Positions 7,996 through 62,111 of a stretch of 64,000 nucleotides of DNA are shown one piece after another. Origin of the DNA: Rhizaria sp. SCN 62-66. Lineage: Eukaryota. Below the pieces are notes generated by a model. The model was not told where the DNA came from. It was given only the letters and a program-made list of their open reading frames with translations, and made no database searches. The translations under genes and the position numbers were made by a program. Where the stretch lies: NCBI GenBank assembly GCA_001724265.1, contig MEDY01000088.1, forward strand, positions 1 through 64,000, read 5' to 3'. The stretch's first letter is position 1. Each line of letters opens with the position of its first letter.

Positions 7996-10858
<2,863 letters not shown>

Positions 10859-35974: not shown

Positions 35975-36585
35975 TGCTGCAAGGGGCACGAAGAATCAAT
36001 ATGACGAGCCCAGCGTAAAGCGAACTGCAGCGTGAATCGTTTCAGAACAAGTCTAAGAATGCATGAAACCCGTAAATATTAAAAAACGCGTGAGAAGGAT
36101 GCAGGAAAAATTGGGAGCACGATCCGGACAAAGGGGCGGATACGTGAACTTGCTTCACATCGTCCTTATGTTTGCCAGGCGCGCCCAACGAGTCTTATAC
36201 ACGATTTTATAGCTCAGAAAAAAATATGTAATAGTCCACTACATGAAACAGCTTGAATTTAACCCTGTTGGCGTTTTGTCGATTGCAATCTTGTATGCTA
36301 CACTTAGAAAAAAACAGTCCGGTTTGCACCACTGGCTCATTGTCTCCTTCACTCACCGCACCTCACTGGTTGGCTTTTCTTTTCGGTCGTGCCTAGTTTT
36401 AAACGACTTGACTAACTTTAAACAATCAAAGATTCTGTCCTCTGATGGCTCAGGCACTACTATGAGCCAATTTAGACAGGAAAACAGTAGAATTAATTGA
36501 TTAAAATAGTCATGGACAGAATAAAAAGATTTATTTACTTGAAAGTCAAAACTAGATAGCATTATTCTCTTCATAAAAGTCATGT

Positions 36586-36731
36586 CAAGTTGTTAAAAAT
36601 GATCACTCCAGGGGTGTTAAGATCTCGGTCATTTCACCGGGCCAAGGCGAAGCCTTGGGCTGGTGTCTTTAGCCACGGCTTATTTTGCCACTCAACACCC
36701 CTGGAATGATCATTTTGTTAATATCAACTTG
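36586..36731. repeat. Palindromic element: about 23-40 bp imperfect terminal inverted repeats enclosing 3-4 small hairpins (MITE-like)
   Basis: AAAATGATCACTCCAGGGGTGTT (36596-36618) pairs with AACACCCCTGGAATGATCATTTT (36694-36716) with one mismatch; outer CAAGTTG/CAACTTG; inner CCAAGGC-GAA-GCCTTGG. Confidence 0.85.
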
Positions 36732-36734
36732 CAT

Positions 36735-39700
36735 TTACAGCTCAAACCTGTCCGCATCTGACTCCGCGCTGAGCTCGTCCTTGGGCATCACAGCCGCGAC
36801 ATCGCTGTCGTCCTCGGTGCTGGACCGGTCGCTCGCACCAGCGCCCTCGCGCTGCTGCCTCTTGTACTGCTGTCGCGCCAGCCGCGACCCTTGCCGCAGC
36901 GCACGCTGCGTCTTCTGCGCCAGAGCTGCCGCGGCTGCGCCCGCACTGAAGTCCCTGCCGCCACCCTCCGCCAGCACGCCGTCATTTTCGCTGCCGCTGT
37001 CGGAGTCGCCGTAGTTGCCCGCAGTGAACCGGTCGGCGCCATAGAACGTCGCCCCCACGACCCGCGCACGCCCACGCCGCCCCCGCTGGCCCGGATCCGC
37101 GGTCTCGGCAGCATCGTCGGCCGCGGATTTCTCGCGCTCCCTGCGCGCGCGCATCGCGGCCAGGTCCGCCTCGAGCCGCCAGTCAAGCGCCTCTTTGATG
37201 TTCTTGTTCGCGCGCCGCTGCGCCGCGTCTGGCGCTTCGAGCCGCTCCAGCTGCTGCGCACGCAGGTGTGCTAGCGGGTGGCGCGCGCGGTCCTCTTCCT
37301 CCTGCGCCGCGCGCAGCTGCGCCAGCTCGGCCGCGTGCCGCGCCTGCCAGCGCTCCTCGCGCTCGCGCGCGCGCGCCTCCTTGGCCGTCTCGGGCACGTG
37401 CGCGGTGCCGACGCCGAGCCAGATCGAGTCATCGAGCCCGAACCCGTCGTCGTCGCCGTCGTTGGTGTTGTCGGTCGCGCTCAAGCTGACGTTGACGCTG
37501 GCGTTAAGCGAGGCGGGCGCGGACGCCAGTGTCGAGGCAGCTGTCGTCGCGCGACTGCTGGGGAGGCTGTCGTCGTCAGAGTCGTCACCACCAACAACGA
37601 CAGCAGCGGCTGCCGCCGTGTCACCGTCCGTTCTGACGTTGAGGTTGTGATCGCCCCCGTGATCCTTGTCCTTGTCGAAAGACTTCGCAACCGTCGCCAC
37701 AGATACGCCGGCGCTCGCACCAGCCCCAGTGGCGGAGCCGCCCTGTTGCAGCTCCGCCTCGGAGAAGTAGTTAAGCTTGCGGTGCAGCGCTTCCCTCACT
37801 GCGCGCCGTGAAGCGGCCGACGAGCGCGGCACCGCAGCAGCGGCAGAGGCGGCCGCAGCAGAGGCGGCCTCGGCCTCAGCAGCCGCGGCCTCAGCCTCCG
37901 CTTTCGCCGCCTCCGCGGCCGCGCGCAGCTCCGCCGAGCGCTCGGTGAACACATTGGACACAACGGCGGCAACGCCACTCCTGCTGCTCTTCCTGCTCAC
38001 GGTGCCGTTCACGTGGTTCTCGCTCGCCGCCAGGCGCGCGGCGTGCTCCGCGGCGGCCTCGTCGGCGGCGCGCAGCGCCGCGGCGAGCGCCGCGGCGGCC
38101 TTGGTCTTGGCCGCAGCGGCCGCGGCCGCAGTGGCGGCGCGCGTGGCGGCGGCCTCGGCAGCGGCAACGATCTTGTCCGCATCCTGCTCCGCGGCGATGC
38201 GCTTGGCGTCGGCCTTGGCCTGGCGCGCGCGGCGCTTCTCCTCTTCGCCGCGCTCACGCTCGCGCTCGGCCTCGTCCTCCTGGTGCTTGAACGCCGCGCG
38301 CAGCTCCTCCGGCAGGCGCACCTTTAGGTACAGGTACGAGTCGATGCTGCCGGCCCGCAGGTCCTCGGCGCGCGCGGCCTCGAACAGGTGCCGCGCAACG
38401 GCCACCCACGCCAGCGCCGACGACGCGCGCGTGGCGCCCGCGGCGGCGACGGCTGCGGGCAGCAGACGCAGCTCCAGCGGCGTCCACAGTGGCCCGCCGC
38501 CCGGAATCGCCACTGTCGCCTGGCGGTCGCGCGCAAAGCGCTCCGAGCGCGAGAGCCCGTCGTCGGAGCTGTGCGCGCGCTGCTCGCGTCCGCGCCGGCG
38601 GGAGCCGGCACGCGGGCGACTGGCGCCTCCAGCGCGCGCGGGACCGTTGTCACCCTTCTTGCCCCGGCGACTACGGCTGTCGGCGCGAGATCGTCGCCCG
38701 CGCCCGCCAGCGGTTTCGTCGACATAGTCATCCTCGTCGTCATCGCTATCGTCACTTTCGCTGCCGTCTTCACTGCTGCCGCTGCCCGAGAGCCCGTCGC
38801 TGATGAAGCCCTTGTCGCTGTCGTCTTCGCTGCTGTCCGCGACCGCCATCTCTGCCACGGCGCGCCGCACGTATGCGTTCTTCATCTTGCGCATCGCGGC
38901 GGGCGTGTTGGGCTCTTGGTCGCGCAGCGAGCGCCAGGACACCGCGCTGGCGTTCGCGGCACCAGCGCTTGCGGCGCGCTTGGCGGGCGTCGCCTTGATC
39001 GGCGTCGCCCGCGAGCCCGCAGCCCTGGCCGGCGTCGCGGCGCCGGGGCGGCCCCGCGACACGATGCGCCCGCGCAAGTGCGGGTCCGAGTCAGAGTCGT
39101 CGCTGCCGCTGCCGGACTCAGTCTCGCTCTCGCTCTCGGTCACCGTCGTCGCGTCACTGGCCCAGCCGCTCGCTGCCGCGCGCGCGCCCCCGCGTCCGCG
39201 ACCACTGGCAGCGGGACCCGGCGCAGGGCGCGCGTGTTTGGCGCTGCCGGGCGTGCGCACACCCGCGCCCGCGCTTGACGTCGCGCGAAGCGAGCGCGCG
39301 GCAGGGCTGGCGAGAGGAGAGCTGGCCCTGCGCTTGCGCGACGCGCTGCCGGTCGCCGTCTGACTGCGACTCTTTGAGCGCGCGCCGCCCCGCGCCGCCG
39401 CACCACCGCTCTTACCGCCACGAGCACCGGTCCCGCGGCTGCGGCTGCGGCCGTCACTGTTTTTGCCGTCGTCATCACTGTCACCGTCGTCGTCGCCGTC
39501 GTCGTTTTCAGTGTCGCTGGCACTGTTATGGCGGTCGGTCGACTCGGAGTCGTCGCTGCTGATGACGATAGGTGTCTCGAGCGAGCTGCCCAGCGCCCCC
39601 AGCGCGTCGCGCCGCGCCGACCTGCTCCGCAGCGGGCGCGCCGGCGTCACAAGAGGCGCCCGCGCAGGCGCCGCAGACGCCTGAGTCCGCGGCGACGACC

Positions 39701-41600
39701 GGGACGGCGCCCTGGTCTGCGCTCTCGCCGGCGGCCGGGCAGCAGCTGCAGGCTTGCTTTGCGGCTTCACAGGCGTTGCCACACGAACATTGGGTGCAAA
39801 GGCAGACGCCGATGCCGACGCTGACGCGCGCGCATGCAGCGTCCCCCTGAGCGCGGCTGGAACCTTGATCGGGCTGGGGGCGCACTTGACCGCAGCGGCC
39901 CGCTCTGCGGCGGCTTTGGCCTTGCGCCGCGTGTTGGCGCGCGTAACGTCGTAGTCGTCGTCGTCATCGTCGCTGCCGATGGCGGCCGTGGCGACAGGCG
40001 AGCTCTCGTTGCTGTCGACAATGACCACGGCCTCGCCCGCTTCCATGTCGCTGTCAGTACTTAGATCGGTCATGCGTATAGTATTGCCGCGCAATGCACC
40101 ACGCGACGCATTGCGCAACGCCGTGCGTGGAGAGGTGCGCGCCGCAACACCCGCACCGGTGGCACTGGTCTTGCCGCCGCTACGAGCCCGGCCGGGCGTG
40201 TAGATCTGCGCGACCGGCAGCACCAACGCAGCCGCGTCGCGCCGAGCGGACACGCCGACGCCACTCTGTGCAGCGCTGGCCTTGGCCAGGGCCTGGCCCC
40301 AGACTTCGTCATCGTCATCATCGTCGTCGTCGACGACGACTTCGTTGTTGCTCACTGCGACGGTATTACTGTGGACGCTGCTCGCAGGCTTCACGCCGCT
40401 GCCTGTGCGCTTCACAGGCGTGACACGCGGCGCCGTTCTCCCCGTCGCCGCCGCCGTCGGCGCGGACGCGGTCGCAGAGGCTGTGGACGAAGAGGTGGTA
40501 ACGGTCGACCTCATGCTGCGCCGGACACTGCCTACAGCAGCTGCAGCCGGCGCTGTCGTGACCGACTGAGACAGCGAGGCCGGCGGCGGGGAGACAACGG
40601 CGGCCGTGAGCAGGGTGTCCGTGCCGCGGGTCGAGCGCGCTGGCGTGCTGTTGCTCGCAGCAACGCTCGGAGTCGCAGTCCCTGCGGCACTGGCGCTCAC
40701 GTTGGTGCTCCGAGCTGCTGCGAACGCGCCGATGGGGGCGCGGACCAGGCTCGCGGCCGTGGCGAAGCCCGACGCGGCCAACAGAGAGCGCCGTGGCCGC
40801 GACTGCGTCGGAGACGTCTCCGCATCTGCCGCAGACGCAGTCGGCGAGGTGGCGGTCACGGCGGCAGCGGTTTTGGGCGGCGGCAGCGGGGGACCCATGG
40901 GCGCGACTGCGTGCGCCAGCGACTGCGACAGGTCGCGCGCCGAGGACGCCCCCGTCTTCGCTGCATTCATCGCTGCAGCGGCAGACGCAGTTGCGGAGCC
41001 AGGGGCCGGGACGACAGGCGTCGCGGCGGCCGAGCTGCGGGGGGCCACTTCCAGGGGCAGCACGGGCGCCGTGGCGGCCGAGGAGCCGGCGGAGCCCGCG
41101 CCATGGGCCTTGGCCGGCGAGCCGCACCCGGAGCCCGTAGAGGATGCGCACGCAGCGTCGGCGCCTGCGTTGGTACCCTAAAAGTGCGAGGTGTCGAATA
41201 CGACGCTCTGCTGCTTGCCAGTCATTGGCTGCTGGTGTGATGGGGACGCGGAGGTGACCGTGGTGGCGCAGCTGGGCGGCGCGGTGGAACATTGCGTAGA
41301 AGTGGCGGAGGTCTGCACTGGTGAGATCAGTACGTTGTCAGTCGACATCCTGTTGAATATGGAATAAATGCCCTTAATGTTGGCAATGCCCGTCATGAGC
41401 GGCGAACCCGAACCTGTGGAGGCTGCGGGCACAGGGGTTGCTCCACGGGAGGTGCTCCGCGTCCCAGGAGACGCGGAAAAAGAGCTTGTGTCCGAGGTCG
41501 AGTTTGATATTCCCTCCGCGAGTGACAGCTCAGCGTCGGGGGAGCCGTGGGGACTTTGACGAGGGCCAGCCTCGCTCGTTTGTCGAGACGGTGGCGGCAT
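36735..41600 (-). CDS. Large low-complexity, probably nuclear protein, 1621 aa with one in-frame TAG (41178-41180)
   Basis: ORFs 41178-41600 and 36735-41063 are in the same frame, separated only by TAG. S/A/R/D-rich, SIM-like PIVISSDD, helical C-terminal part; TAA stop. Confidence 0.72.
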
Positions 41601-42567: not shown

Positions 42568-45500
42568 ATGTCAGCTCCTGTCGAAGGCAAGATTCAGCTC
42601 CCCGTGGCCGGTGAGCGCAACGTGCTCATCACGTCTGCGCTGCCTTACGTGAACAACGTGCCTCACCTGGGCAACATTGTCGGCTGCGTGCTGTCCGGCG
42701 ACGTTTACGCGCGCTTCTGCCGTCTTCGCGGCTACAACACGCTCTACATCTGCGGCACAGATGAGTACGGCACTGCAACCGAGACCAAGGCCCAGCAGGA
42801 GGGCCTGACCCCGCAGCAGATCTGCGACAAGTACCATGTCATCCACAAGGCCGTGTACGACTGGTTCGACATTGCGTTCGACCACTTCGGCCGCACGTCG
42901 ACGCCGACGCAGACGGCCATCGCCCAGGACATCTTCAAGAAGTGCGACGCCAACAAGTTCATTTGCTGCCAGAAGACGCAGCAGTTCTACTGTACGCCCT
43001 GCGACCGCTTCCTTGCGGACCGCTTTGTGTCGGGTGTGTGCCCGTTCTGCAAGTACGAGGACGCTAAGGGCGACCAGTGCGACAAGTGCTCCAAGCTTAT
43101 CAACGCCATCGAGCTCACCAACCCGCTGTGCACGGTGTGCAAGGCCGCGCCCCAGGTCAAGGACTCGAAGCAGCTATGCCTGACGCTGCCCAAGCTTCAG
43201 TGTAAGCTCAAGAACTTTGTAAAGCAGAACTACGGCCCCTGGTCCGCTAACGCGCGCCAGGTGACGGACGCGTGGCTGGCCCAGAAGCTCATCGCGCGCC
43301 AGATCACGCGCGACCTCAAGTGGGGCACGCCCGTGCCGAAGCCGGGGTTCGACTCCAAGGTCTTCTACGTGTGGTTCGACGCGCCGATCGGGTACATCTC
43401 CATCACGGCGGGCTACTCGGACCAGTGGCAGAAGTGGTGGAAGTGGGACCGCGCCGACGGCGCCGAGCACAAGCCCGCCGCTGACTGCGCCGACACCGCG
43501 TGCGAGGAGTGCGAAGAGCCCGCTGCGGGCCCCGAGGCCGGCGCCGAGGGCGCGGATGACAAGGACGCGAAGCTGTACAAGGACTGCGAAGGCTGCGCCG
43601 AGTGCGACGACGCGGCCAAGCCTGAGTTCGTGGACAAGTACAACGTCGAGCTGGTGCAATTTCTCGGCAAGGACAACATCCCGTTCCACTCGGTCATGTT
43701 CCCGTCGACGCTGCTGGCCGCCAAGGACGGCTACATCATGCCCCGCACAATCTCGTCCACCGAGTACCTCAACTACGAGGGCGCCAAGTTCTCTAAGACG
43801 CGCGGCGTGGGCGTCTTCGGCGACCAGGCTCGCGACACGGGCGTGCCCTCCGAGGTCTGGCGCTATTACTTGCTGGCGAACCGGCCCGAGCAGGCCGACA
43901 CGATGTTCACCTGGGACGACTTCGCATCTAAGGCCAATTCGGAGCTGCCCAACAACCTCGGCAACCTCGTGCAGCGTGTGCTCGCCTTCATCTCCTCCAA
44001 GCTCGGCGGAGTGGTGCCTGCGGCTGTGTCCAGCAAGCTGGGCGACGCCGAGACGCAGCTCGAGACTGAGGTCGCGGACCTGATGCAGAACTACGTCAAG
44101 CTGCTTGACACGCAGTCGCTCAAGGACGCGCTGCGCACGGCCATGAACATCTCCATGGCCGGCAACAAGTACATGCAGGACAAGAAGCCCTGGGCACTCA
44201 CCGAGGACGCCGAGGCGTGCGGCACCGCGCTGGCAGTGCTCACGCAGCTCATCTACTTGCTCGCCATCATCCTCGACCCCTTCATGCCGGGCTTCTCGCG
44301 CAAGGTCTTCGCGCAGCTCAACCTCACCATGCCCACGACCCCGCTCAAGAACATCGAGGCCGGCATGGAGGGCAGCGCCTGGCCCCTTGCCAAGATCCTC
44401 GCCGCGGCCGCCGCGGCCGCGCAGAACCCCGAGGCTGCGGTCGTGCCGGGCCTCATCGTCGTGCCCGCGGGCCACAAGCTCGGCGCGCCCGCGCCCATTT
44501 TCGGCAAGCTCGACGCCGGCCGCGTCACCGAGCTCCGCCAGAAGTTCCAGGTACGTACCCACACGCCTATCTTTCACGTTATATTATCCGTTTGGTACGG
44601 ATGCAACGTCTTGTTTTTTTTTTTTTCTTCCTGTTTTATATCTTCATACCCACTCTACTGTTTCTGTTGCTCCTTTTGCAGGGTGCTGTGACCGAGGCCA
44701 CTGGCGCCCCGTTCCCGATGACACTGGTGACCGGCGTGGTGACCGAGGTGGGCGAGCACCCCACCAACGCCAAGTGTTACGTGCTCAAGGTCGACTGCGG
44801 CGAGCCCGAGCAGCGGCAGATCGTGTCGACGCTCGTGGCCAGCTACTCGCCCGAGGCGCTGCTGGGCAAGACTGTGCTCGTGTTGACCAACCTCAAGCCG
44901 GGCAAGTTCGGCGGTGTGCTCTCGCAGGGCATGATCCTCACCGCGCTCTACGCAGAGGGCGACAAGACGACCATCAAGGTCCTCACCTCGGCCGCGCCCA
45001 AGGGCTCTAAGGCCGTCCCCGAGGGCTCTCACCATGAACCCGTCAAGGTCTTCGACGTCAAGTCCAAGCTCAACGCCGTCCAGCTTAACACCGTTGCGGG
45101 TGGCAAGGTACGATTTAACACAACACACAATGTTCATGATACTATCGCGCAACACAGTCATGTTGCGCGTTCTTTTTTATGCGCTGCTTTATGCGAAGGA
45201 GACAGCTTTGCTGGACTTATGGTCCCGTAGCCTGTTTCTGATTCAACAGCGCTAGATTCTCAACTTTAATACGCTCACCTTTTGCGAAGGAGACAGTTTT
45301 GCTGAACCGAATGGTTTTTTAGCCTGTTTCTGATGTAGGCGAGCAAGATTCTACTTGTTCTTTTTTGTTTTTTGTTTTGTTTTGTTTGTTCTTACATCAC
45401 TGTTGGTGACAACTCCCAATTCCATGTTGTCTCACTTCGTTTTCTGCCACCCCCTTCTTGCCTTGGTTTCCGCCCCCACAGATCCACGTCGGCACCGCGC

Positions 45501-45568
45501 CGCTCATGATCGGCACCCACGCGGTCGAGGCCGACGGTGGCGCTCCCGAAGGTGCCACCGTCTGCTAA
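42568..45568 (+). CDS. MARS1: Cytosolic methionyl-tRNA synthetase with C-terminal tRNA-binding OB domain, 3 coding exons (42568-44550, 44682-45107, 45482-45568), 831 aa
   Basis: ITSALPYVNNVPHLGN, CGTDEYG, CxxC zinc knuckles, TRDLKWG, FYVWFDAPIGY, GKDN, KFSKT; C-terminal HP.A.K.YV..VD.GE...RQIVS...NLKP....GV.SQGM. Introns 44551-44681 and 45108-45481; TAA stop. Confidence 0.97.
45181..45351 (+). ncRNA. Intronic double-hairpin AGA-box H/ACA-like RNA, copy A (hairpins 45181-45259 and 45273-45351)
   Basis: Each hairpin has a lower stem, an internal loop (UGCGAA / GAU), upper stem GGAGACAG/CUGUUUCU, a covarying apical stem, and AGA 14 nt after the upper stem. Lies inside MetRS intron 2. Confidence 0.7.
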
Positions 45569-45629
45569 GCGCTCGGTACTGAGCGCTCGGAGCACTGAGT
45601 CCCTGCCTCCCGCCCTTGTCTCTCACCAG

Positions 45630-46001
45630 GTACGCACCCTAATCTGACTCCCTCAGTTATTGCCGATTTTTTTGCTGCTTATGTGCGTTGTACTTTGCGA
45701 AAGAGACAGTTTTGCTGGACCTCTGGTCTAATAGCCTGTCTCTGATTCGGTCACGCTAGATTCTTCAACTTTACGCTCACCTTTTGCGAAGGAGACAGTT
45801 TTGCTGAGCCACCGGCTCTCTAGCCTGTTTCTGATGTAGGCGAGCAAGATTTTTGTTTTTATACGTTCTTATATCTTTTTCTAGTCCTTTGAGTCTTTTC
45901 TTGATGAAGAGGTCTTGTCACACAATCTTTCACTTCTCTTGCAAACACACTCGCTCACTTTGTCCCCTTTTATGATAACGCTTTGATTTTCTTGTTCGCA
46001 G
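45630..46001 (+). other. Predicted 3'-UTR intron of the MetRS gene
   Basis: CAG|GTACGC donor 61 nt after the stop and TTTTCTTGTTCGCAG acceptor; same donor consensus and similar length (372 vs 374 nt) as intron 2. Confidence 0.7.
45685..45852 (+). ncRNA. Intronic double-hairpin AGA-box H/ACA-like RNA, copy B (hairpins 45685-45763 and 45775-45852)
   Basis: Paralogue of copy A with structure-preserving changes (AGAGACAG/CUGUCUCU; AGCC/GGCU vs AACC/GGUU); the flanking intron sequence is not conserved. Confidence 0.7.
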
Positions 46002-46751
46002 AGCTCGACTGCCGACTCCAACGCTGCGTTCGCAGTTATATGTTTTCTTAACATTTTCTTTTGCTTTTACTCCGCCACCTAAGCCACTTGATTTCTCTAG
46101 TCTCACAACGTCTCTTGTAGCTCGCCATTTCCGGTGGCTGCACAGGCGTAATAATACACACCGTAACTACCAGTTTTTCTCACATTCACTGAGTACTTAC
46201 AACACTCCATCAATGGAATGCTCAACGAGATTTGCGCGATTGGGGTGGGTTTGATTCTGTATTGATGTTAAACATGCGTCTTTGTCCTTAAAGTCAGCGG
46301 ACTGTGACTGAGTATGAACGGGCCGCTTTCGGGAAGCGACACGATATCAAACATACGGTCGTCAGTGCGGACATACGAACAGAGACACACGTGTATGCAA
46401 CGCATCGCTAGAGTAAACATGAGTAGAAAAAGCTTTGTAACGGGACGGAGTCGAGACACGACTCAGGAAAAAAGAAAAATCTCGACGTAGGCCTTGAGGG
46501 GTAGCCCACATATAATTGATCGAGTGCCTGCTGAGCACACCGGGGTTGGGACAACCCAATATGTCCTTGTCGCACTGGAGTGTGACTTGATGTGTCATCA
46601 ATCAAACACAACACGAGTCACAAGCTTCGATGCAGCGCAGTCACGCAGACACCAAGCATTGCCAACCCAGACTAACATATGACAATAATGCAGTGACTCA
46701 GTAGACCGAGGCGGTCACCGAATTGCAGCGGCAACATCAGCAACAACACGC

Positions 46752-47246
46752 TTAGGCGGCCTTGGACTTCTTGGTGGCAGCCTTACCGGCGGAGTCGGCG
46801 CGGCGCTTGGCGTCTCGGCGCGAGACGTCACCGTCGCGGACAAGCCCGCCCGTGGTGTGCGCGCGGTAGATGCTGTTGTAGTACTTCTGGAAGGACGCGG
46901 CCTCGCCGGCGGGGACGACGCAGGAGATCTTCTTTGGGCCGAGCACGGCGCGGACGAGGCAGCCCGCCTCGCCGAGCGTGTGGTCCACCGGTGCAGCCGC
47001 GGGCTTCTTGCCCTTCTGGGAACCCTTCTTAGAACCCTTCACAGCGGCGGGCTTCGCAGCAGCGGCCGCAGCAGCAGGCTTGGGCGTCTCAGTGCCAGTC
47101 TTGTTGTTGGAGGGAGGCAGGTTGGCCTCACCAGCAATCGCGTAGCGCTTGAAAGAGACGTCCACAGTGCCCGTATTCTTGGTCGTTGACGTGTTCAACA
47201 TGCGCGTAAACTGATCCAGGAACGCGTCCGGAGTCAAACGAACCAT
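46752..47246 (-). CDS. SRP14: Signal recognition particle 14 kDa protein
   Basis: MVRLTPDAFLDQFTRML, GTVDVSFKRY, CLVRAVLGPKKISCVV and FQKYYNSIYRA match SRP14; TAA stop. Confidence 0.92.
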   Translation of the reverse strand: MVRLTPDAFLDQFTRMLNTSTTKNTGTVDVSFKRYAIAGEANLPPSNNKTGTETPKPAAAAAAAKPAAVKGSKKGSQKGKKPAAAPVDHTLGEAGCLVRAVLGPKKISCVVPAGEAASFQKYYNSIYRAHTTGGLVRDGDVSRRDAKRRADSAGKAATKKSKAA

Positions 47247-47817
47247 ATTCCTAGAAAGGGATATCAGGAATGGTCAGATTGGGAATGAAAACGAAGAAAT
47301 TGTGGGGTGTGAGAGGAAGTCATGACACAGCAGTACAATCATAGGAATATCTCATCATAGACTCGACACAATAACAACTGGCAAACACCTGTATTGTATG
47401 CGACACAAGTCGACCAGAACATAAATAAGACACTTCAAAATCTACTTAACATGCCGAGATATAGAATCAATTCGGCGTTTCCTCGGTCCAAGTGACTGTG
47501 CGCAGCCAGGCGGCTTCCTTTCTCGAGTTTGAATCGGTCGGTAACGGCGAGTTGCTCATTTAGCCCCACAGCGCCTCTAAAACACCACCTGTTCATACTT
47601 AAATTTCATTTATGATACATTTACTATTTGACACTATCGCAACTTTAATCTTGCACTGAATGACGTTACACTGGGCTCATAGACCTTATTTTGTTGACTA
47701 CCGCCACCGGTTCTTTTTGACTTGTGTCTTCCCCTCTCTTTAGCGACTTGCAGGCGACTACTCTTTCCAACTGCAGACTCTTGACAACTTTGCACACACC
47801 ACACACTTTTTGACGTC

Positions 47818-50800
47818 ATGTCTGCGTCCGGCCCGGGCTCCGGCCGTTCTTTCGGTGGTGCGCCAGCGGGTGCCCACCCCCAGCAGACCGTTTACACACA
47901 TGGTCCCTTCGGCGAGCCTTTGAACCCGCTCAAGGACCTTAACCCGAGCGAGATCTTTGGCGCTCACGCCGACGGCTCCTCGGGTCTTAGCGGTGCCGCG
48001 CACACTGCTCCGCCGCGCGCGAGCCGCACAATGGGCCTTCATGTGCCCCAACGCACGGCGATGCACCAGCCCGCTCCTCCCGGCCAGCCTGGCTTCTTTG
48101 CTAGCGGCATGTCGATGACCACGTCGTCTTCGACCGCGCCCGCTTCGAAGCGTCACTCCGCATCGGCGGCTGCTGCTGCGGGTAGCATGCGCGCGCGCGA
48201 CGGCGCCGCTCCTCAGGCGCCGCCTGCGACGGGCATCTCGGCCAGCATCGAGCCGTTTCTGGCCAAGCAGGTCCGCGCCGCCGTGGCCGCGCGCTCCGTG
48301 TCGACGCAGCTGCACCTCCCGCTGCTGCGCGACTATGTCGACTCCTCTGCGTCTTCCTCCGCCGCGGGCCCTGCTGCCGCCGCCGCCGCTGCTGCTGCCG
48401 CCGCTGCGGCCGCAGCGGGTAATGGCGAGGACGCCGACGCTGCTGCCTCTGCCGCTGCTGCTGCTGCTGCCGCTGCTGCTGCCGCGGCCGGCCCCAACGG
48501 CACCGGCGTGGTTGCGACGACTGCCGCGAATGTACAGGTGACGCTGCAGACAGGCGAGGACGCGATCAAGTTCTTTGTGCAGCATGGCGCGGGGAACCCG
48601 CTCAAGTTCGTCTACTGCAACCGCGCGGACGCGCAGCCCGAGGCGCGGCGCGTCGCCATCTCAGGTCTTCAGGACGACGCGCAGCGCACGACGGCCGAGA
48701 CCAAGATCATCGGCTCGGGCATGACGCGCGAGCAGGCGCGGGCCGCGGCCATCGCGAAGCTCGCGGCCGTGACCTCGACGCTGTCGTACCGGCCCTACGA
48801 TCTCACCATCGTGTCGCGCAAGCAGGCCAACACAGAGTTCTTCACAGTGTCCGGCACGGGCGTGGTGCACGTGCTGCCTGACGCTCCGACTGAGTTCATG
48901 CCGCTCACGGACTGGATGCACCAGGCCTCGTCCTTCAACGTGCTTCGCTCCTCACGCTTCTTCCAGCACTTTCTCTCCTCAAAGACCTTCCGCCTGTGGC
49001 GCGCCAACGTGCGCTACCGCCTTTTCTGCAAGCAGCGCCAGATGCTGCAGCGCAATCTTTTCCTCGCGCGGCCTTCGTTCTGCTCTTCACTGCTGCAGGT
49101 GAACCGCATCGTGTACGAGATGCAGCAGGTGCCGCTGCTGCGCCACCGTCAGGCCATCTTCTCCGACGCCGAATACAACGAGCAGCAGCTGCAGGAGCGC
49201 ACACAGGCTGCTAAGACGCTGGAACAGAAGGTCGCCCAGCTCGAGTCCGAGGTTGAGCGCGTGTGCAAGGGCGCGCGCGACCGTGCCAAGCAGTACGACC
49301 AGGGCATCACGTCTGACGACCTGGCGACGTCCAAGTTCGCCCAGTACCTCCTTAAGGACGGCTCGCGTGGCAAGTCCATGGTGGCGATCAAGAAGGAGCG
49401 CGCAGACCGCATCCGCAAGCTCAAGCACGCCGCGCTCGAGGCCGACATGCTGGGCGAGTTCGTGCGCCTGGTCGACTACATGCAGGTCGAGGGGCTCGTG
49501 CACTCGGCCATCACCGCCGTCGCACGCCTCTTGGGCATCCTGCACGAGCCCGGCCGCGCGAAGCGGCCCATGTTCCAGACCTCTGTGGCCTTCGGCGACG
49601 CTGCGCTGGTCTTCTCGCCGACCGTGGGCGACTTCGCGAAGCTGCTGCGCGACGCGGCCGAGGGCGCCGTGCACACGGTCGCGACTGCGGACCGCGTGCT
49701 GCTGCTGCCGCGCCTCAAGCCCTTCGTGTCTTCGCTCGTGTCCGAGTACCCACACGTGGGTCACATGGTGTCGGCGGACCCGATCTTCGCCGCGTGTCTG
49801 CATGCCATCGAGAGCAAGGTCCTGGCAGACTTTAAGGCCGTGTCGGACAACATCCAGGTGCTGGAGCGCTACCGCCCTGTGTTCGAATTCGGCAAGTCGT
49901 GGCCGCAGTCGCCGTACTGCTACCGCGGGCCGCAGGGCCAGCTCGCCGACGTGGCGCCCGAGACGATGGAGGCGGACATGAAGCAGCAGGTTGACTGGGC
50001 CGCCACCATCGGCAACATCAAAAACTCGTACGAAGGCGGCGTGTTCCAGGCCGAGACCAAGAACCTCAAGGGCCGTCTGCTGCCCATCTCCGAGGGCGCG
50101 CTGGTGGGCATGAAGGAGTACTTGCTGCTGCGCTTCCGCGTCAAGTCGAGCGAACTCAAGGACATGCTGCGCGAGCGCATCCGTCTGCTCAAGGAGGACC
50201 CGCCGGAGCTGGCGCTTTTCGCCAAGCACGTGCACACGTTCAACACGCTCGTGGGCGAGGCGCGCGAATTGCTGCTGCGCGCGCGCCAGGTCGAGTTTAT
50301 GTTCCACTTGCTGGAGCGCTACGGCGTCGACGTCACCATCGACTCGGTGCAATACGAGGAGGGTCAGGCCATCGTGCAGGACTTCTCCGCGCAGCTCGGG
50401 CTCGCCGAGCAGCGCATCGAGGAGCGCATGGGCCTCATGAAGGGCCAAGTGTACCAACGCATCGCCAAGCTCACCGGCGAGCTCAGCGCGCAGCGCATGC
50501 GCCTCATGGAGGGCGAGTTTGTCAACGACAAGGCCAAGCCTGACGACGTGCTGCAGGACCTCGTGGCCGTGGACGAGGCCATCGGCGCCATCGAGGCCGA
50601 GATCAAGCGCACCGAGGACTTCCAGGTGCTGTTCAAGATGGACCCTTACCGGTTCGACGACCATCTCAAGGACTGCCGCCGCACGTTCGAGCTCAAGGAG
50701 CGCTTCTGGACGCTGTACCGCGACTGGCTGCGCAAGACGAGCGAGTGGAACAAGATCGATTTTCTGTCCCTCAACGTGGACAAGATGGCGATCGACGTGC

Positions 50801-53800
50801 GCGACATGTACACGAGCTCGCACGAGCTGACGCGCCAGGTGCGCGACAAGCAGGGCCGCGAGATCGCCGTGACAGTGCGCCTGAAGCGCATGATCCAGGA
50901 GTACAAGCTCATCATGCCGCTTGTGCTGGAGCTTGGCAACCCGGCGATGCGGCCGCAGCACTGGCGCACGCTCTTCACGCAGATGGGCCAGACGTGGACT
51001 TCGGAGAAGGACATCGCGCTCAAGAAGCTGCGCGCGCTCAACATCTTCTCCTACAAGACGCTCATCAACGAGGTGTGCGAGTCTGCCGTGGGCGAGTATT
51101 CGCTCGAGCAGGGTCTGGCCAAGATTGAGGCTGCATGGAGCAAGACGAACTTCGTCCTGGTGCCGTACCAGAAGCAGAAGGACGACCTCGTGTGGATCCT
51201 CGGCGACGTCGAGGAGGTCTCCGTGCTGCTCGAGGAGCACCAGATGGTGCTGCAGTCTATGCTGGGCTCGCAGTACATCAAGGCTGTGCAGGCACAGGTC
51301 GAGGACTGGGAGCGCAAGCTCGCCACGCTGGCCGACGTGCTCGAGGAGTGGCTCACCTGCCAGCGCGGCTGGATGTACATGGAGCCCATCTTCTCCGCCG
51401 TCGACATCCAGCGCCAGCTCCCCACCGAGGCCAAGATTTTCTCGGAGGTCGACCGCTTCTGGCGCGAGCTCATGCGCCGCTGCTCTAAGTCCCCCAATGT
51501 ACTCGCCTCGGCCACAGCCAACAACATCCTGCCGCTGCTGATCAAGAACAATGCCGACTTGGACCGCATCCAGAAGCAGCTCGAGGAGTACCTTGAGACC
51601 AAGCGTGCCGCTTTCCCGCGTTTTTACTTCCTCGCCAACGAAGAGCTGTTGCAGATCCTGGCCCAGGCGCGCGAGCCCCAGGCCGTGCAGCCGCACCTCA
51701 ACAAGTGCTTCGAGAACATCCAGCGCCTGTCGTTCACCAACACGGCCAACTCCGTTGAAGTCACCGGTATGGTGTCGAGCGAGAACGAGGAGGTCGCCTT
51801 CCCGCAGCACATCTTCACCGTCGGTTCCACCGAGGCCTGGCTCAACGACGTCGAGGCCACGATGCGCCGCACCGTGCGCCTCAACATCAAGCGCGCGCTT
51901 GTGGCCTACCCGACCACGCGCCAGGGCGCGATCGAGCGCGGCCAGTGGCTGCGCCAGTTCCCCTCGCAGGCCATCCTTACGGCGGACCAGGTGATGTGGA
52001 CGCAGAACGTCACGGCCGCGCTCTCGGCCATGGAGAAGGGCGCCAACCCGGGCGCACTTGCCGACTTTTTCGACTTCTCCAAGGCGCAGATCGCGGCCAT
52101 GGTCGCGCTTATCCGCGGCGACCTCACGCCGCTCGAGCGCCAGATGATGTCTAACCTCATCATCATCGACGTCCACGCACGCGACGTCGTCGAGAACCTG
52201 CTCAACGCCAAATGCAGCAAGCTCGGCGCTTTTGACTGGATCAAGCAGCTGCGCTATTACTGGCTCGCTGACAAGGACCGCTGGATTGCCAACGGCTCCC
52301 CCGCGCCCTATGCCAGCTCGGCTGCCGGCGTTGCTGGTGCCGCCGGTGCGGCCGCTGCTGCCCGCGCGCGCGGTGCGGCTGGCAAGGCGGGCTCTGCCAA
52401 CGCGGGCGGCAAGGTTGCCGTGAGCACCGACGACGGCGAGGTCGCGGACTGGGAGCAATGCGTGGTGCGCCAGACGACGGGCGAGTTTGCGTACCGCTAC
52501 GAGTACCTCGGCAACGCGACTCGCCTCGTCATCACGGCGCTGACTGACCGCTGCTACCTCACGCTTACGGGCGCGCTCGCCATGCACAACGGTGGCTCAC
52601 CACAGGGCCCCGCCGGTACGGGCAAGACTGAGACCGTCAAGGACCTCGGTAAGGCGATGGCCAACCAGGTTGTCGTGTTCAACTGCTCCGACGCACTCGA
52701 GATCGGCACCATGTCGCGCTTCTTCTCCGGCCTGGCGCAGGCCGGCGCGTGGGCGTGCTTCGATGAGTTCAACCGTATCGACATCGAAGTGCTGTCCGTC
52801 ATCGCGCAGCAGATCCTGACGATCCAGACTGCGATCATCGCACACCGCAACCCGTTTGAGTTCCAGGGCCGTCTCATCCCGCTCGACCCCTCGTTCGGCG
52901 TCTTCATCACCATGAACCCCGGCTACGCGGGTCGCTCCGAGCTGCCCGACAACCTGAAGGCGCTGTTCCGCCCCGTCGCGATGATGGTGCCCGACTACGC
53001 CATGATTGCGCAGATTATCCTCTTCTCCGAAGGCTTCGAGAACGCACCCTCGCTGTCGAAGAAGATGGTCCAGCTCTACAAGCTGGCCTCGGAGCAGCTC
53101 TCGCAGCAGGACCACTACGACTTCGGTATGCGTGCCGTTAAGTCCGTGCTCGTCATGGCCGGCGCGCTCAAGCGCCGCAGTGACGACGTGCCCGAGGACG
53201 TGGTGCTGATTCGCGCTATGCGCGACAGCAACATCCCTAAGTTCCTCGCGCAGGACATCCCGCTCTTCCAGGGCATCATCTCGGACCTCTTCCCAGGCGT
53301 CGCCGTGCCCGAGGTCCCGATGACGCATCTCGAGCGCGCCGTGCACGACTCGCTCACCGACGCCGGGCTGCAGCCGCTGCCCTCGCTTATCAACAAGATC
53401 ATCCAGCTCCACGAGACCGTGGTGGTGCGCACCGGTGTCATGGTCGTTGGCTCGTCCTTCACTGGCAAGACCACCTGCTCCAAGGTGCTCGCACGCGCGC
53501 TGGGCCGGCTTTACAAGTCAAACCCGGCGGCCGCGGCCGCTGACGCGTTCGTGCGCGAGGTCGAGACGTACACGCTTAACCCTAAGGCCGTCACCATGGG
53601 CCAGCTCTACGGCCAGGTCAACTCCGTGTCGAACGAGTGGACCGACGGTTTGGTGTCGGACCTGGTCCGCACGCTCGCGGCCGAGACGCACACGCCCTCG
53701 CGCAAGTGGGTCCTCTTCGACGGCCCCGTCGACGCGCTCTGGATTGAGAACATGAACACCGTACTCGACGACAACAAGATGCTCTGTCTCGTCAACTCCG

Positions 53801-56800
53801 AGCGTATTCGTCTCTCGGCGCAGATGACGATGATGTTTGAGGTCGAGGACCTCTCCCAGGCCTCGCCCGCCACCGTCTCCCGTTGCGGCATGGTGTACCT
53901 CGAGCCCGTCTACCTGGCGTGGTCCGCGCTCGTCAACTCCTGGGCCGTGACCTTTGCCACCGCGTACCCGTTGCTGCCAGCCTCGATCGTTCAGTTCGTC
54001 ACATCGGCCATCCTCACGCACGGCGCCGCGCTGCTGGGCTTCGTCCACGAGCAGTGCACGCAGCGCGTGCCCACCACGGACAACCAGCTCATCCGCTCCT
54101 GCCTGCACCTCGTCGAGGCTCTCGCCGCCGACATTCTGAAGCCCTATGCCAAGAAGCTCCACTCCTCGGCGTCGATGCAGCTCGTCGTGGCCGGCACCGA
54201 CGACGGCGATGACAGCGACACGGAGGGCGAGGACGAGAACAAGGTCGCCGAGGCCGTCGCCGCCGCTGCCGCTGCTGCTGCTGACAACGAGTTGATGAGC
54301 CCGATGCCCGAAGGTATGACCCCGCTGCCCGCCGCGGCGGCGGAGCCCGAGACGCCGCTGCCGGAGCCCAAGAGCACACAGCGCCTGCTCGGCCTGGCAC
54401 TGTACATGGCACTCACCTGGTCTATCGGCGCCAACGTCGACGACGCGCACCGCGCTAAGTTCTCCACGTTCCTGCGCGCGACCGTGGCGGCGACGCTGGC
54501 GCCCGCGGTGCCGATCTCGCTGCAGGCGTACGAGCTCACGATGGACGCCGCCAAGGAGGAGCTGGTGCCCTGGACCTCGGTCGTGCCGCAATTCGTGTAC
54601 GACAAGGAGGCGCCCTTCTTCTCCATCTTGGTCCCCACGCCCGAGACGGTGTGCACCGAGACACTGATCAAGGCGCTCATCCAGGCGCGTCGCTTCGTCA
54701 TGCTCTCCGGCGAGACGGGCACGGGCAAGACTGTCTCCGCGCAGAACTTCCTGCGCCACAACGACGACAAGTACGCTTCCATCTCGATCCAGTTCTCGGC
54801 GCGTACGTCGCCCGAGTCGCTGACAGACGCCATGGAGTTTAAGCTCGAGAAGCGCGGTCGCCGCTCTATCCTCGGCGCGCCGCGCGGCAAGGTCGCCGCC
54901 GTGGTCTATTGCGACGACCTCAACATGCCCGCACCCGAGCGCTACGGCGCGCAGCCGCCGCTGGAGCTGCTGCGTCAGACGATCGATCAGGGCGGCTACT
55001 ACGACCTGTCGAAGAAGAAGCCCTTCTTCAAGAACATCCGCGACGTCGTGTACATCGCCACCATGGCGCCCGCGGGCGGTGGCCGTACCAAGTGCTCGCA
55101 GCGCCTGACGCGCCACTTCTCCACCTTCTGGCTCACGGTCATGTCCAACAACTCGCTGCAGACGATCTTCTCCTCCATCCTCGAGGGCTTCTTCAACTCG
55201 GTTGCCGGGCACCTCCGCACCGACCTCTCTAAGGTCGCGTCCTCCATCGTCACGGCCTCCGTCGACCTCTACTCGGCCTGCCGCCGCAGCCTGCTGCCCA
55301 CGCCGTCCAAGTCGCACTACACCTTCAACCTGCGCGATCTCTCTAAGGTCGTGCAGGGCATGTGCCAGATCCGCTCGCAAAACATCACTGACGTTGTCGA
55401 CCTGCTGCGCCTCTGGGTGCACGAGTCCGCGCGCGTGTTCCGCGACCGTCTCGTCGACGAGGGCGACCGCCGCTGGTTCGACTCGCAGTGCCGCACGCGC
55501 CTCAAGGAGGCCTTCGACATGGACTGGCCCGCCGAGTCCTTCGCCGACGTGCTCTTCGGCGACTTTGCCGCGCCCACGCTCGAGGCCCCGGCCCCGGCTG
55601 CCACTGCGACGGGTGACGCCAACGCGCCCGAGATGATCATGAGCGGCGAGCGCAACTACGAGGAGCTGCGCGACCTGGCGTCGCTGCAGCAGCAACTGGG
55701 CGACCACCTCGCTGAGTACAACCTCATCTTCTCCTCGCAGATGCACCTTGTCTTCTTCAAGGACGCTATCCACCACCTCGCCCGTGTGTCGCGTATCCTG
55801 CGCCAGCCGCGCGGCAACGCGCTGCTTGTCGGCGTCGGTGGCTCTGGCCGCCAGTCGCTGACCAAGCTCGCCGCCTTTATCGCCGACTACAAGTGCGTGT
55901 CGATCGAGATCTCCAGCGGCTACTCGATCACCGACTGGCGTGACGCGCTTAAGCAGCTGCTCGAGACGGCGGGCGCGGACAACCAGCCCGTGGTGTTCCT
56001 GCTGTCGGACGCGCAGATCGTGCACGACGCTTTCTTGGAGGACATCAACAACCTGCTCAACACGGGCCAGGTCCCCAACCTCTTCGCCAACGACGAGCTT
56101 GATGCCATCGTGCTGCGCGTGCGCCAGCAGGCCAAGAAGGCCGGCCGCGGCGAGGCGCGCGAGGCCGTGCTGGAGCAGTTCAACCACAACGTGCGCGAGA
56201 ACCTGCACGTCGTGCTTGCCTTCTCTCCCATCGGCGACACGTTCCGCGAGCGTCTGCGTATGTTCCCCTCGCTCGTCAACTGCTGCGCCATCGATTGGTA
56301 CTCCCCGTGGCCGCGCGACGCGCTGCTGGCCGTGGCGCAGGAATACCTGCACTCGCAGACCGTGCCGGAGGGCGCTGACGCCGGCGCCGCGCACCACTTC
56401 ATGGCCGCGCAGACGGCCTCTTCGGGCGCAGGCTCCTCCGCGAGCGACATGATTGCATTGCACAAGAACAAGCTCGCCAAGGCGGCCGTCGAGATGCACA
56501 TGTCGGTTAAGGACATCTCCGACCAGTACTACGATGAGCTGCGCCGCATCAACTATGTGACGCCGTCCTCGTTCCTACAGCTGCTGCACTCGTACACGGC
56601 GATGCTGGGCGAGCAGCAGGACGCGCTGTCGACGCGCGCGATGCGGTATCGCAACGGTCTGTCGAAGCTCACGTCGACGAACCAGCTCGTGGCGCAGCTG
56701 CGCCAGGACCTCATCAACCTGCAGCCGATTCTGCAGAAGTCCTCCGAGGAGACCGCCGAGCTGCTGGTGCACCTGGAGCGCGAGCAGCAAGAGGCCAACT

Positions 56801-61449: not shown

Positions 61450-62111
61450 GCTCGACAGCTTCGTTTTATTTCGCAAATTTATGTAGGTATTATGACACTT
61501 ATTATGAATCAGTTTAATCTTTCTTCAAAATAACCAAAGTTAATACAAAGTTTCTTTATTCATTCTACTCCACGGCCACTTGATTTGCTCCTTTGCAATG
61601 CCATTTTGATCATTTTCTGGTGTGACTGGTGATCTCTTACCTACCAACGCTTCTGGTGGTATACTGGGGGGTGGAAGGTGTTGCCTCGAAACATGCTTCT
61701 TGCAAGAGCTCAGAACGACCGTAAATAGCAAAGTCCATTCGTGCCAAGGATTACCAATCCATATTAGGCATTTCTTTTCTTTTTATGCAACATATCTGTT
61801 CTATTGGGTCTGCTACCTATCAACTTCTCCTGGCCGTCCCAAGCTGGTCGGGGTTTACCAGCTCAATGGTTTCTCTGGCATTATTTTAATAACCCCATCA
61901 CTCTAATGACACATGCGCTCTATTATCGGGGGAATGCGGTTTCGATATATTGAATGTCCCTCCAGATGCCCTTAAGCATCTTCTTTCACTGAGCTTCTGA
62001 CATTTTTCTGATCTTCATAACGCTTCTTCATGTCTCTCGTTTGTTCTCTTGCTTTCTACCCCTCAGCACAGACTTCATTTATTTGCAGACACAACGCGTG
62101 TGACTGCACCG

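Follow-up and report, generated by a model that had tools for sequence, protein, structure and literature searches.

A MetRS gene in the 64-kb window (the whole stretch of DNA analysed) houses four similar hairpin units in two of its introns, which raises the question of whether these introns encode pseudouridylation guide RNAs, another kind of structured RNA, or copies of a mobile repeat. We approached this through the splicing of the host gene, the structure and substitution pattern of the units, their likeness to known guide classes, and the target that their internal loops would predict.

Host gene and introns

The host gene, on the + strand, was identified as MetRS from its Pfam domains. 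Translation of the first coding exon (42568–44550; 661 codons), the end of which is an RNA contig joint, gave matches to tRNA-synt_1g (467.5 bits) and Anticodon_3. The second coding exon (44682–45107), delimited by RNA contig joints, encodes the tRNA-binding domain (tRNA_bind, 79 bits), and the last coding exon part (45482–45568) ends in the stop codon TAA at 45566–45568, as placed by the sequence, the ORF list and the RNA contig joints. A MetRS relative 62% identical to the window protein was also observed. Translation-machinery genes are a usual host type of snoRNAs.

The gene contains three cis-spliced introns, all GT..AG. Intron 1 (44551–44681; 131 nt; joint 44547>44679, cut +3, run X1 contig) is without a hairpin unit. 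Intron 2 (45108–45481; 374 nt; joint 45105>45480, cut +2, run X1 contig) houses units 1 and 2, and intron 3 (45630–46001; 372 nt; joint 45626>45999, cut +3, contigs of runs X1 and X3), located in the 3′ UTR and starting 61 nt past the stop codon, houses units 3 and 4. Splicing was thus seen for all three introns in run X1 and for the third also in X3, the two runs belonging to two studies; the RNA contigs, from four runs, cover exons only and not the hairpins, X4 and X5 contributing exon-2 contigs only. The earlier note had spoken of two MetRS introns: the gene and the splicing of both introns were borne out, with the correction that the first pair of hairpins lies in a coding-region intron and the second in a 3′ UTR intron.

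Structure of the hairpin units

The repeat finder returned a 39-nt family of four copies at spacings of 91, 413 and 89 nt, and the core motifs TGCGAA[AG]GAGACAG, TAGCCTGT[TC]TCTGAT and GAGACAG.TTTGCTG were each present in four copies on the + strand of the 64-kb window and absent from its − strand. The locus therefore consists, as the earlier note had described with a unit of about 80 nt, of two tandem pairs, here delimited as four units of about 79 nt on the + strand only. Units 1 (45181–45259) and 2 (45273–45351) are joined by a hinge (45260–45272) that is identical to that of intron 3 at 10 of 13 aligned positions; units 3 (45685–45763) and 4 (45775–45852) form the second pair.

Each unit is built of a lower stem, an internal loop, an 8-bp stem, a YUUU bulge, GCU/AGC and a covarying 5-bp apical stem. 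The 5′ loop arm is UGCGAA in all four (45192–45197, 45283–45288, 45696–45701 and 45785–45790 in units 1 to 4), as is the 3′ arm GAU (45240–45242, 45332–45334, 45744–45746 and 45833–45835). The 8-bp stem, GGAGACAG/CUGUUUCU in three units and AGAGACAG/CUGUCUCU in unit 3, where both substitutions preserve pairing, is perfect throughout. The bulge is CUUU or UUUU, and GCUG/UAGC recurs in every unit. At 14 nt from the 8-bp stem, again in 4/4 units, follows the AGA box, which reads AGAUUC in units 1 (45254–45259), 2 (45346–45351) and 3 (45758–45763) and AGAUUU in unit 4 (45847–45852), a single unpaired U or A separating AGA from the lower stem. The invariance claimed earlier for the loop arms, the bulge, GCUG/UAGC and the exact 14-nt distance to AGAUU held for all four units.

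The lower stems were more variable. Stem I has 6 bp in unit 1 (GCGCUG/CAGCGC) and 8 bp in units 2 and 4 (GCUCACCU/AGGCGAGC), while unit 3 has only four clean pairs (GCGU/ACGC) plus an irregular extension. The claim that lower stems differ yet still pair stood for the difference between 5′ and 3′ units and for pairing in general; it needed qualification for GCUCACCU/AGGCGAGC, which contains one A·C mismatch, and for unit 3. The upstream side of the pocket measures 8–11 nt in units 1, 2 and 4, the value for unit 3 varying with the end point assigned to its irregular lower stem. In computed folds, each two-unit molecule formed two hairpins, the AGA being 16 nt from the next stem in intron 2 and 14 nt in intron 3. 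Since the hinge is conserved, one-hairpin and two-hairpin products would both be possible.

Pairing, folding and substitution pattern

When 18 pairs were followed through the four units, all 72 of 72 cells held standard pairs, a proportion that fell to 29–51% when the partner was slid by 1–3 columns. Two apical pairs were changed on both sides, so that the covariation of apical stems asserted before was confirmed, and at the fourth pair of the lower stem, C-G in unit 1 corresponds to U-A in unit 3. Folding energies ranged from −24.3 to −29.5 kcal/mol on the + strand (z −2.0 to −3.2) and from −20.0 to −24.9 on the − strand (z −1.5 to −2.5); together with the G·U pairs, these energies favoured the + strand. 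The z-scores of −2.0 to −3.2 are modest for single hairpins and weigh against a guide, as does the minimum-energy fold of unit 3, in which the two arms pair together (CGAA/UUCG) and close the loop.

Units 2 and 4 differ in eight columns, seven of which fall among the 16 columns of the apical part (hypergeometric p 2.6e-5). Between introns 2 and 3, the hairpins were 0.80 and 0.90 identical, and the 3′ flanks were identical at the level of chance (0.54, shuffle mean 0.56). As read from the sequences, the substitution pattern of the units appears selection-like.

Copy number and searches for relatives

A covariance model recovered only the four units in the 64 kb, at 94–97 bits (95.1, 94.2, 96.8 and 96.0 for units 1 to 4), the next best match scoring 11.7 bits. 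A site on the − strand (36286–36364), in which a similar stem is followed at 14 nt by AGAUUG, was considered a chance occurrence (11.6 bits, E 1.4, fold z +0.39). Rfam gave no match at the gathering score in the 64-kb window; with E up to 10, five matches were obtained in 45050–46050, none to an H/ACA family, the best being unrelated families at E 0.77 or worse. The hairpin core had no match in viral contigs, and the covariance model found nothing above 10.8 bits in the 25 metagenome loci from the U2-variant scan described below. A T-box-like element or tRNA-Met mimic was rejected, AUG or CAU not being conserved, and a box C/D reading (CUGA is present) was rejected by eye, there being no RUGAUGA-like partner.

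Comparison with known guide RNAs

The trypanosomatid H/ACA-like consensus, as given in PMC2613932, comprises a stem I of 5–8 bp, one to three unpaired nucleotides before AGA, an upstream loop side of 5–11 nt, a perfect stem of 3–7 bp above the loop, a pseudouridine 13–16 nt from AGA and guide duplexes of 3–9 bp per side. In trypanosomes, AGA is described in the literature as the general rule. Measured against that published description, all four units agree with AGA-box H/ACA-like hairpins in every structural feature that can be measured, apart from the lower stem of unit 3. The units share with trypanosomatid and Euglena guides, as portrayed in PMC2613932 and PMC3273799, the succession of stem I, internal loop and stem II, the AGA 1 nt past stem I, the 14 nt from loop to box, an upstream loop side of 8–11 nt and the perfect stem above the loop. 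They differ from those guides in being intron-encoded and in forming same-loop tandem pairs with a conserved hinge; furthermore, the organism groups with stramenopiles and alveolates, and not with kinetoplastids, in a dynein tree. According to PMC3542256, intronic snoRNAs had not been reported for T. brucei.

With canonical box H/ACA snoRNAs, the pairs have in common two hairpins with internal loops, a hinge and a tail, a box 14 nt from the loop, an origin in housekeeping-gene introns, and the conservation of both hairpins and the hinge between two copies. In contrast to the canonical form, the 3′ box is AGA in 4/4 units with no ACA nearby, the hinge is long, both hairpins bear identical guide arms, and no Rfam family was matched. 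In both pairs the hinge box reads AGAUUC; it has A at positions 1 and 3 and C at position 6, and thus misses the ANANNA consensus at the last position, as the earlier note had recognized, with no other ANANNA in the hinge. Archaeal H/ACA sRNAs have one to three hairpins, each with its own ACA-type box after it, and their upper stems contain a K-turn or K-loop. The units resemble them in the separate 3′ box of each hairpin at a fixed distance and differ in the bulge, in which YUUU stands opposite nothing, followed by GCU/AGC, without a tandem G·A motif.

Deviations from ACA are described for the SAR ciliate Tetrahymena (AUA, UAA, UCA and AAA), single-stem forms not being seen in the set reported in PMC3273799. 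In Entamoeba histolytica, single-hairpin H/ACA forms are thought to be processed from double-hairpin precursors (PMC3542256), and such cutting of a precursor is one of the two possible maturation routes here; Entamoeba, as that source describes it, differs in keeping the ACA box and in having only one intronic gene.

We consider it fairly probable that the hairpins, one tandem pair to each of introns 2 and 3, are AGA-box H/ACA-type pseudouridylation guides, and we infer a stable small RNA with protein partners, catalysis and a target. The spliced intron would be debranched and trimmed, with Cbf5, Nop10, Gar1 and Nhp2 protecting the hairpins, to yield either one hairpin-hinge-hairpin RNA of about 170 nt per intron or two single-hairpin RNAs of about 79 nt. 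The loop arms (5′ UGCGAA and 3′ GAU) would pair with a substrate 5′-AUC-U-N-UUCGCA-3′, leaving unpaired a U that adjoins the 8-bp stem at its base, at a distance of 14 nt from AGA, for conversion to pseudouridine by Cbf5. Further points weigh against such guides: the AGA box in place of ACA, the identity of all four loops, which is unusual for two-hairpin guides, and the 3′ arm, of which the unit classes share only 3 bp (GAUUC... vs. GAUGU...).

Predicted target and the U2 lead

The target put forward in the earlier note, AUC-U-N-UUCGCA, does derive from the loop arms UGCGAA and GAU; since the arms are the same in all four hairpins, these would represent four gene copies for one target site rather than four sites. 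Contaminant rDNA of other eukaryotes, comprising four complete SSU, four 5.8S and five partial LSU sequences, the latter extending at most over model positions 1–2260 of 3401, contained no perfect target even with G·U allowed. A motif search aimed at the LSU 3′ third in 10 contaminated assemblies returned nothing. Two candidates were set aside, L028 as a chimeric contig and L041 as having no rRNA match. In viral contigs, an LSU motif had 14 matches, none of them rRNA, and a U2 motif had one, not U2 by Rfam.

Alignment of the predicted target with the Rfam U2 consensus showed that AUC-U-G-UUC coincides at model position 41; opposite the 6-bp arm, the consensus forms a C·U mismatch at position 46 and a G·U wobble at 47. 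We estimate that, with about 100 known pseudouridine sites available, an equally good match to one of them would arise by chance with a probability near 0.05. The CAB box UGAG was found in none of the four apical segments (0/4). UGAG is the Cajal-body box of metazoan snRNA guides (scaRNA), and its absence from the apical loops, together with the mismatch and the wobble, distinguishes the units from U2 41/42 guides; the fit of the target core near position 41, a pseudouridine that is H/ACA-made in fungi and animals, is what they share. That position (41/42) is described as pseudouridylated under yeast snR81, vertebrate SCARNA4/ACA26, non-eutherian SCARNA15 and the C. elegans orthologue C50C3.14 (PMC5733568). 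The partial U2 match reported before is the best, though still tentative, target lead. The branch-site-recognition region of U2 snRNA, at position 41 in Rfam and vertebrate numbering (yeast 42), is on this alignment the best candidate substrate, a possible if doubtful one, and targeting would need G-C at positions 46–47 in the U2 of the organism.

U2 variants were sought in metagenomes with a pattern built from the guide, which returned 25 loci; the fully pairing variants among them, having been fetched by that pattern, are not independent support. Twenty of the loci were unrelated coding or other sequence, and Rfam identified three as U2 (L005, L021 and a fragment, L002). Genuine U2 genes in which position 46 is G do occur in environmental contigs (L005, 135.5 bits; L021, 89.3 bits). 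L004, the sole U2-like locus with the exact predicted target, reached 39.4 bits, below the threshold of 46, and appears truncated; L022 was not U2. The predicted U2 variant, as a literal string, had no match in the papers searched.

Alternative explanations

The hairpins could belong to a structured intronic RNA other than a Cbf5 guide, either a stable non-coding RNA of a different class or a cis element tuning MetRS splicing or nonsense-mediated decay; we regard this as unlikely. Its appeal is that conservation extends beyond the demands of a guide: little or nothing varies in the 8-bp stem, the YUUU bulge and GCU/AGC, the complete lower stem is identical between units 2 and 4, and the loops are the same in 4/4 units. 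The target, moreover, was not found in the SSU, 5.8S and partial LSU of other eukaryotes, nor in the window. A 3′ UTR intron downstream of the stop is a layout tied to an mRNA decay rule, and the 61 nt separating intron 3 from the stop could couple splicing to mRNA decay. A class of 'AGA-like' RNAs of the same shape, not destabilised by CBF5 knock-down, is documented in PMC2613932. However, that AGA keeps precisely the same 14-nt distance in two 3′ segments of divergent sequence agrees with a Cbf5-type ruler, and there is no conserved methionine-related motif, AUG occurring in the apical loop of only two of the four units. Control of MetRS splicing by a cis-regulatory RNA, which the earlier note had offered as its alternative, gained no support from the position of the hairpins in mid-intron, 55–73 nt from the 5′ and 130–149 nt from the 3′ splice sites, where splice signals are not covered; from the RNA contigs, which show spliced mRNA; or from the window itself, from which the complement of the loop arms is absent even at one mismatch (3.5 expected by chance).

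It is very unlikely that the units are a functionless repeat, whether mobile and MITE/SINE-like or derived from a snoRNA by retroposition, that was inserted twice in one gene. In favour of such a repeat, the 10-mer GTTCTTTTTT occurs exactly twice in the 64 kb, 12 nt upstream of unit 1 and 6 nt downstream of unit 2, in the manner of a target-site duplication, and the duplication covers a short segment with unrelated 3′ flanks in its two copies. Against it, the 10-mer is T-rich within a T-rich intron and may belong to the unit, as the upstream T-run also precedes unit 3, and no clean repeat flanks pair 2, where GATTTTT runs into the AGA box of the pair itself. No other copy exists on either strand of the 64 kb, all four lie in one gene, terminal inverted repeats and an A-tail are lacking, and pair-preserving substitutions concentrated in the apical stem are not predicted by dead-repeat decay; a snoRNA copied by retroposition would, moreover, remain a snoRNA.

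Organism placement and implications

In a dynein motor tree of 18 rows, a single-gene tree from a quick search, the window and one relative were sister to Hondaea and oomycetes (SH-aLRT 85), this group falling inside a clade with alveolates (98) and kinetoplastids being placed elsewhere. The tree thus places the organism close to stramenopiles and distant from kinetoplastids, apparently outside Euglenozoa. A full-text literature search of limited reach returned no description of stramenopile H/ACA snoRNAs.

The hairpins are probable H/ACA-type guides of a variant but known kind. Introns commonly encode modification guides, which makes the find unremarkable in itself; it is the box sequence that is out of the ordinary. 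AGA at both box positions outside Euglenozoa would be relevant to the manner and the frequency of departures from the ACA/H-box rule. Four hairpins with one pocket, in which substitutions spare all but the apical stem, would also offer a clean natural case for constraint beyond guide pairing, and the explicit target AUC-U-N-UUCGCA becomes testable once the rRNA and snRNA genes of the organism are read. The most specific proposal, which we hold to be unlikely as a whole, is that a stramenopile-related flagellate makes AGA-box single-hairpin guides from MetRS introns, including a 3′ UTR intron, and that the four share a pocket for the branch-site-recognition region of a U2 in which positions 46–47 have co-varied with the guide. 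If stramenopile-related AGA-box guides are real, the AGA single-hairpin form would be ancestral or recurrent in eukaryotes rather than a euglenozoan oddity.

Structure of the hairpin units

The segment 45181–45852 (+) contained two tandem pairs lying ~500 nt from each other, comprising four related units of ~79 nt at 45181–45259, 45273–45351, 45685–45763, and 45775–45852 (units 1 to 4). A repeat finder recovered a 39-nt family in four copies (spacing 91, 413, and 89 nt), and three core motifs were each counted four times on the + strand of the 64-kb window, whose − strand had none. From 5′ to 3′, each unit starts with a lower stem and a 5′ loop arm whose last bases are UGCGAA. Next come an 8-bp stem (GGAGACAG/CUGUUUCU, but AGAGACAG/CUGUCUCU for unit 3), a bulge reading CUUU or UUUU, GCU/AGC, and a 5-bp apical stem with a loop of 3–4 nt, no two units having the same apical stem. 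On the 3′ side, a loop arm starting with GAU leads into the second strand of the lower stem, and a single unpaired nucleotide separates this stem from the box, which is AGAUUC in units 1–3 and AGAUUU in unit 4. The spacing from the 8-bp stem to AGA was 14 nt in all four units.

In a four-row alignment with a hand-written structure, standard pairs occupied all 72 pair cells, compared to 29–51% when the 3′ partners were shifted by 1–3 columns. Both sides had changed in two apical pairs. The 8-bp stem of unit 3 carried two substitutions with pairing kept (G·U to A-U and G·U to G-C), and the fourth lower-stem pair, C-G in unit 1, was U-A in unit 3. The observed score was reached by 21 of 500 shuffles, a control that is weak with four related rows. 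Folding energies were better on the + strand for every unit (−24.3 to −29.5 vs. −20.0 to −24.9 kcal/mol on the − strand), with modest z-scores (−2.0 to −3.2). A covariance model, which the earlier note had proposed for a genome scan, was derived from the units; run unfiltered on both strands of the window, it returned the four at 94–97 bits and no other match above 11.7 bits. The four-unit hairpin repeat was confirmed. One further candidate at 36286–36364 (−; 11.6 bits, E 1.4), with the stem GAAGGAGACA...UGUUUUUUUCU and AGAUUG 14 nt on, had a fold z-score of +0.39 and was treated as a chance match.

Based on their anatomy, covariation, and context, the units are probably H/ACA-type pseudouridylation guides, which is the best-supported reading. 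In the consensus for trypanosomatid single-hairpin H/ACA-like RNAs (PMC2613932), the box 3 nt from the 3′ end is AGA in place of ACA, stem I has 5–8 bp, 1–3 unpaired nucleotides precede AGA, the upstream loop side has 5–11 nt, the pseudouridine lies 13–16 nt from AGA, a perfect 3–7 bp stem stands above the loop, and guide duplexes have 3–9 bp per side. The units agreed with every feature of this consensus that can be scored on sequence, except for the lower stem of unit 3 with its four clean pairs only. Compared to canonical two-hairpin H/ACA RNAs, both boxes that define the family deviate: the hinge box is AGAUUC rather than ANANNA, as the earlier note had observed, and the tail box is AGA. 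No Rfam family matched the hairpin units. Each intron may yield one two-hairpin RNA of ~170 nt, which the conserved hinge favours, or two single hairpins; a modular origin is favoured by the repetition of an identical box behind every hairpin.

Host gene and introns

The ORF upstream of the hairpins encodes a methionyl-tRNA synthetase (MetRS; Pfam tRNA-synt_1g, 467.5 bits), and the following exon encodes a tRNA_bind domain. Joints in RNA contigs across 44400–46100 delimited three introns, all GT..AG, at 44551–44681, 45108–45481, and 45630–46001. All three joints were present in one contig from the public sequencing run X1, and the third was also found in a contig from X3, a run of a separate study. 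Run X1 is registered as a metagenomic cDNA RNA-Seq library, a kind marked as a guess, and its spliced contigs argue for an origin from RNA. The contigs at this locus span exons only and are uninformative on small RNA.

Units 1 and 2 lie in the second intron and units 3 and 4 in the third. The MetRS stop codon is at 45566–45568 and the third intron opens 61 nt later; therefore, the second hairpin pair sits in a 3′ UTR intron. The earlier assignment to two MetRS introns thus held for the splicing of both and for the host gene, but not for the coding-region position it had implied for the second. In many eukaryotes a spliced 3′ UTR intron in such a position flags the transcript for nonsense-mediated decay, and snoRNA host genes typically show this layout. 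All three introns start with GTACG and end with CAG, and they are confined to the final 1.5 kb of the gene, after an initial 1983 nt of CDS free of introns. Just 5′ of unit 1, the interval 45141–45178 holds a GC-rich hairpin of 8 bp (CGCGCAAC...GUUGCGCG) with a U-run behind it; this feature matched a bacterial sRNA model at chance level (E 0.77), and a counterpart before unit 3 was found for its 3′ half only.

Candidate targets

The loop geometry predicts the substrate 5′-AUC-U-N-UUCGCA-3′, a sequence absent from the 64-kb window at up to one mismatch. Contaminant eukaryotic rDNA in prokaryote assemblies served as stand-in rRNA (59 loci from other organisms, retrieved with a 5.8S primer), of which Rfam delimited 4 complete SSU, 7 5.8S, and LSU pieces to model position 2260 of 3401 at most. 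Across these 59 loci, which cover the LSU up to its pseudouridine-rich 3′ third, neither the strict nor the G·U-tolerant target occurred in mature rRNA; the tolerant pattern had three matches, all in ITS1. The best pairing in mature rRNA, scanned over 4 SSU, 4 5.8S, and 5 LSU pieces, was 8 bp including 3 wobbles.

A partial match to U2 snRNA, raised in the earlier note, held for the core and weakened beyond it: AUC-U-G-UUC equals the Rfam U2 consensus near model position 41, while 3′ of UUC the consensus has U-u-a against the G-C-A wanted by the guide (one mismatch and one wobble). In units 2 and 4, pairing is possible between the 3′ arm (GAUGU) and the five bases that precede the target in U2, with wobbles at two positions. 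The U2 pseudouridine numbered 41 in vertebrates, 42 in yeast, and 43 in C. elegans is made under H/ACA guides, namely snR81, SCARNA4, non-eutherian SCARNA15, and an orthologue in the worm (PMC5733568). Scanning metagenomes for a guide-compatible U2 variant gave 25 loci; Rfam identified three of them as U2 (L005, L021, and the fragment L002), each having G at position 46, and a truncated U2-like sequence (L004; 39.4 bits vs. a threshold of 46) had the exact predicted target. This shows that guide-compatible U2 variants exist; as support for the target they are circular, because the search pattern was derived from the guide. By our own estimate, the chance of such a fit to one of ~100 known sites is ~1 in 20, and we regard U2 position 41 as a tentative and rather unlikely target. 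On the environmental contig L005, genes for U2 (135.5 bits) and U1 (145.9 bits) lie at 1652–1844 and 2833–2997, on the same strand and ~1 kb apart; G at position 46 of this U2 lengthens stem IIa by one G-C pair.

Divergence of the intron copies and alternative readings

Between the second and third introns, 63 of 79 positions were identical in the 5′ hairpins (units 1 and 3; shuffle mean 0.56), 10 of 13 in the hinge (0.54), and 71 of 79 in the 3′ hairpins (units 2 and 4; 0.54). The first 130 nt downstream had an identity of 0.54 (shuffle mean 0.56) and the upstream flank 0.58 (shuffle maximum 0.53); either the flanks decayed or the hairpin segment alone was copied. Of the 8 columns differing between units 2 and 4, 7 fell inside the 16 apical columns (p 2.6e-5). 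Changes within the hairpin segment are pair-preserving or lie where pairing alone matters, which is what selection on RNA structure predicts.

Conservation extended beyond the needs of guide pairing to the 8-bp stem, the bulge, GCU/AGC, and the entire lower stem of the 3′ units. Together with the four identical loops and the absence of a full target match in the RNAs scanned, this gives some lesser probability that the units are a structured RNA working without Cbf5, the pseudouridine synthase of H/ACA particles, or a cis-regulatory element, although the splice sites are distant from the hairpins and these had no pairing partner within the window. One observation favours a mobile-element origin, namely GTTCTTTTTT bracketing the first pair with only two occurrences in 64 kb, but this repeat is T-rich within a T-rich intron, the second pair has no equivalent, the window holds no further copy, and the substitution pattern is unlike decay.

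Other features of the window

At 36590–36720 (−), a few nucleotides past the stop of a 1480-codon ORF (36735–41177, −), a 131-nt element has a closing stem of ~26 bp enclosing three small hairpins (−65.5 kcal/mol vs. a shuffle mean of −30.2; z −10.6); its 20-nt arms are unique in the window and it had no Rfam match. The region 16001–18000 was a composition outlier (GC 0.45 vs. ~0.6 elsewhere; AT skew 0.33, GC skew 0.19). Pfam or homology assigned a Tgs1-like RNA cap guanine-N2 methyltransferase domain, of the type that hypermethylates sn/snoRNA caps, to 8558–10858 (+), SRP14 to 46752–47273 (−), and tetrahydrofolate dehydrogenase/cyclohydrolase to 62001–63998 (+).

Host organism and implications

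The closest MetRS in a large protein collection was 62% identical, and named proteins reached ~50%. A neighbouring uninterrupted ORF of 4554 codons (47785–61449, +) encodes an axonemal dynein heavy chain, which makes the organism a flagellate. A quick single-gene maximum likelihood tree (~1480 motor-domain columns) of this protein and 17 of the 120 matches listed (16 chosen named proteins and the closest unnamed match) recovered animals, kinetoplastids, alveolates, and Hondaea with oomycetes. In this sampling, which lacked Rhizaria, haptophytes, and amoebozoans, the window dynein and this unnamed match were sister to stramenopiles (SH-aLRT 85), within a clade including alveolates (98) and apart from kinetoplastids. 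Taken with the presence of three cis-spliced introns, this placement speaks against a euglenozoan host.

An intronic guide-like RNA is in itself ordinary, a variation on a known kind. What is unusual here is the occurrence of AGA boxes outside Euglenozoa, four identical pockets, and a copy in a 3′ UTR intron.
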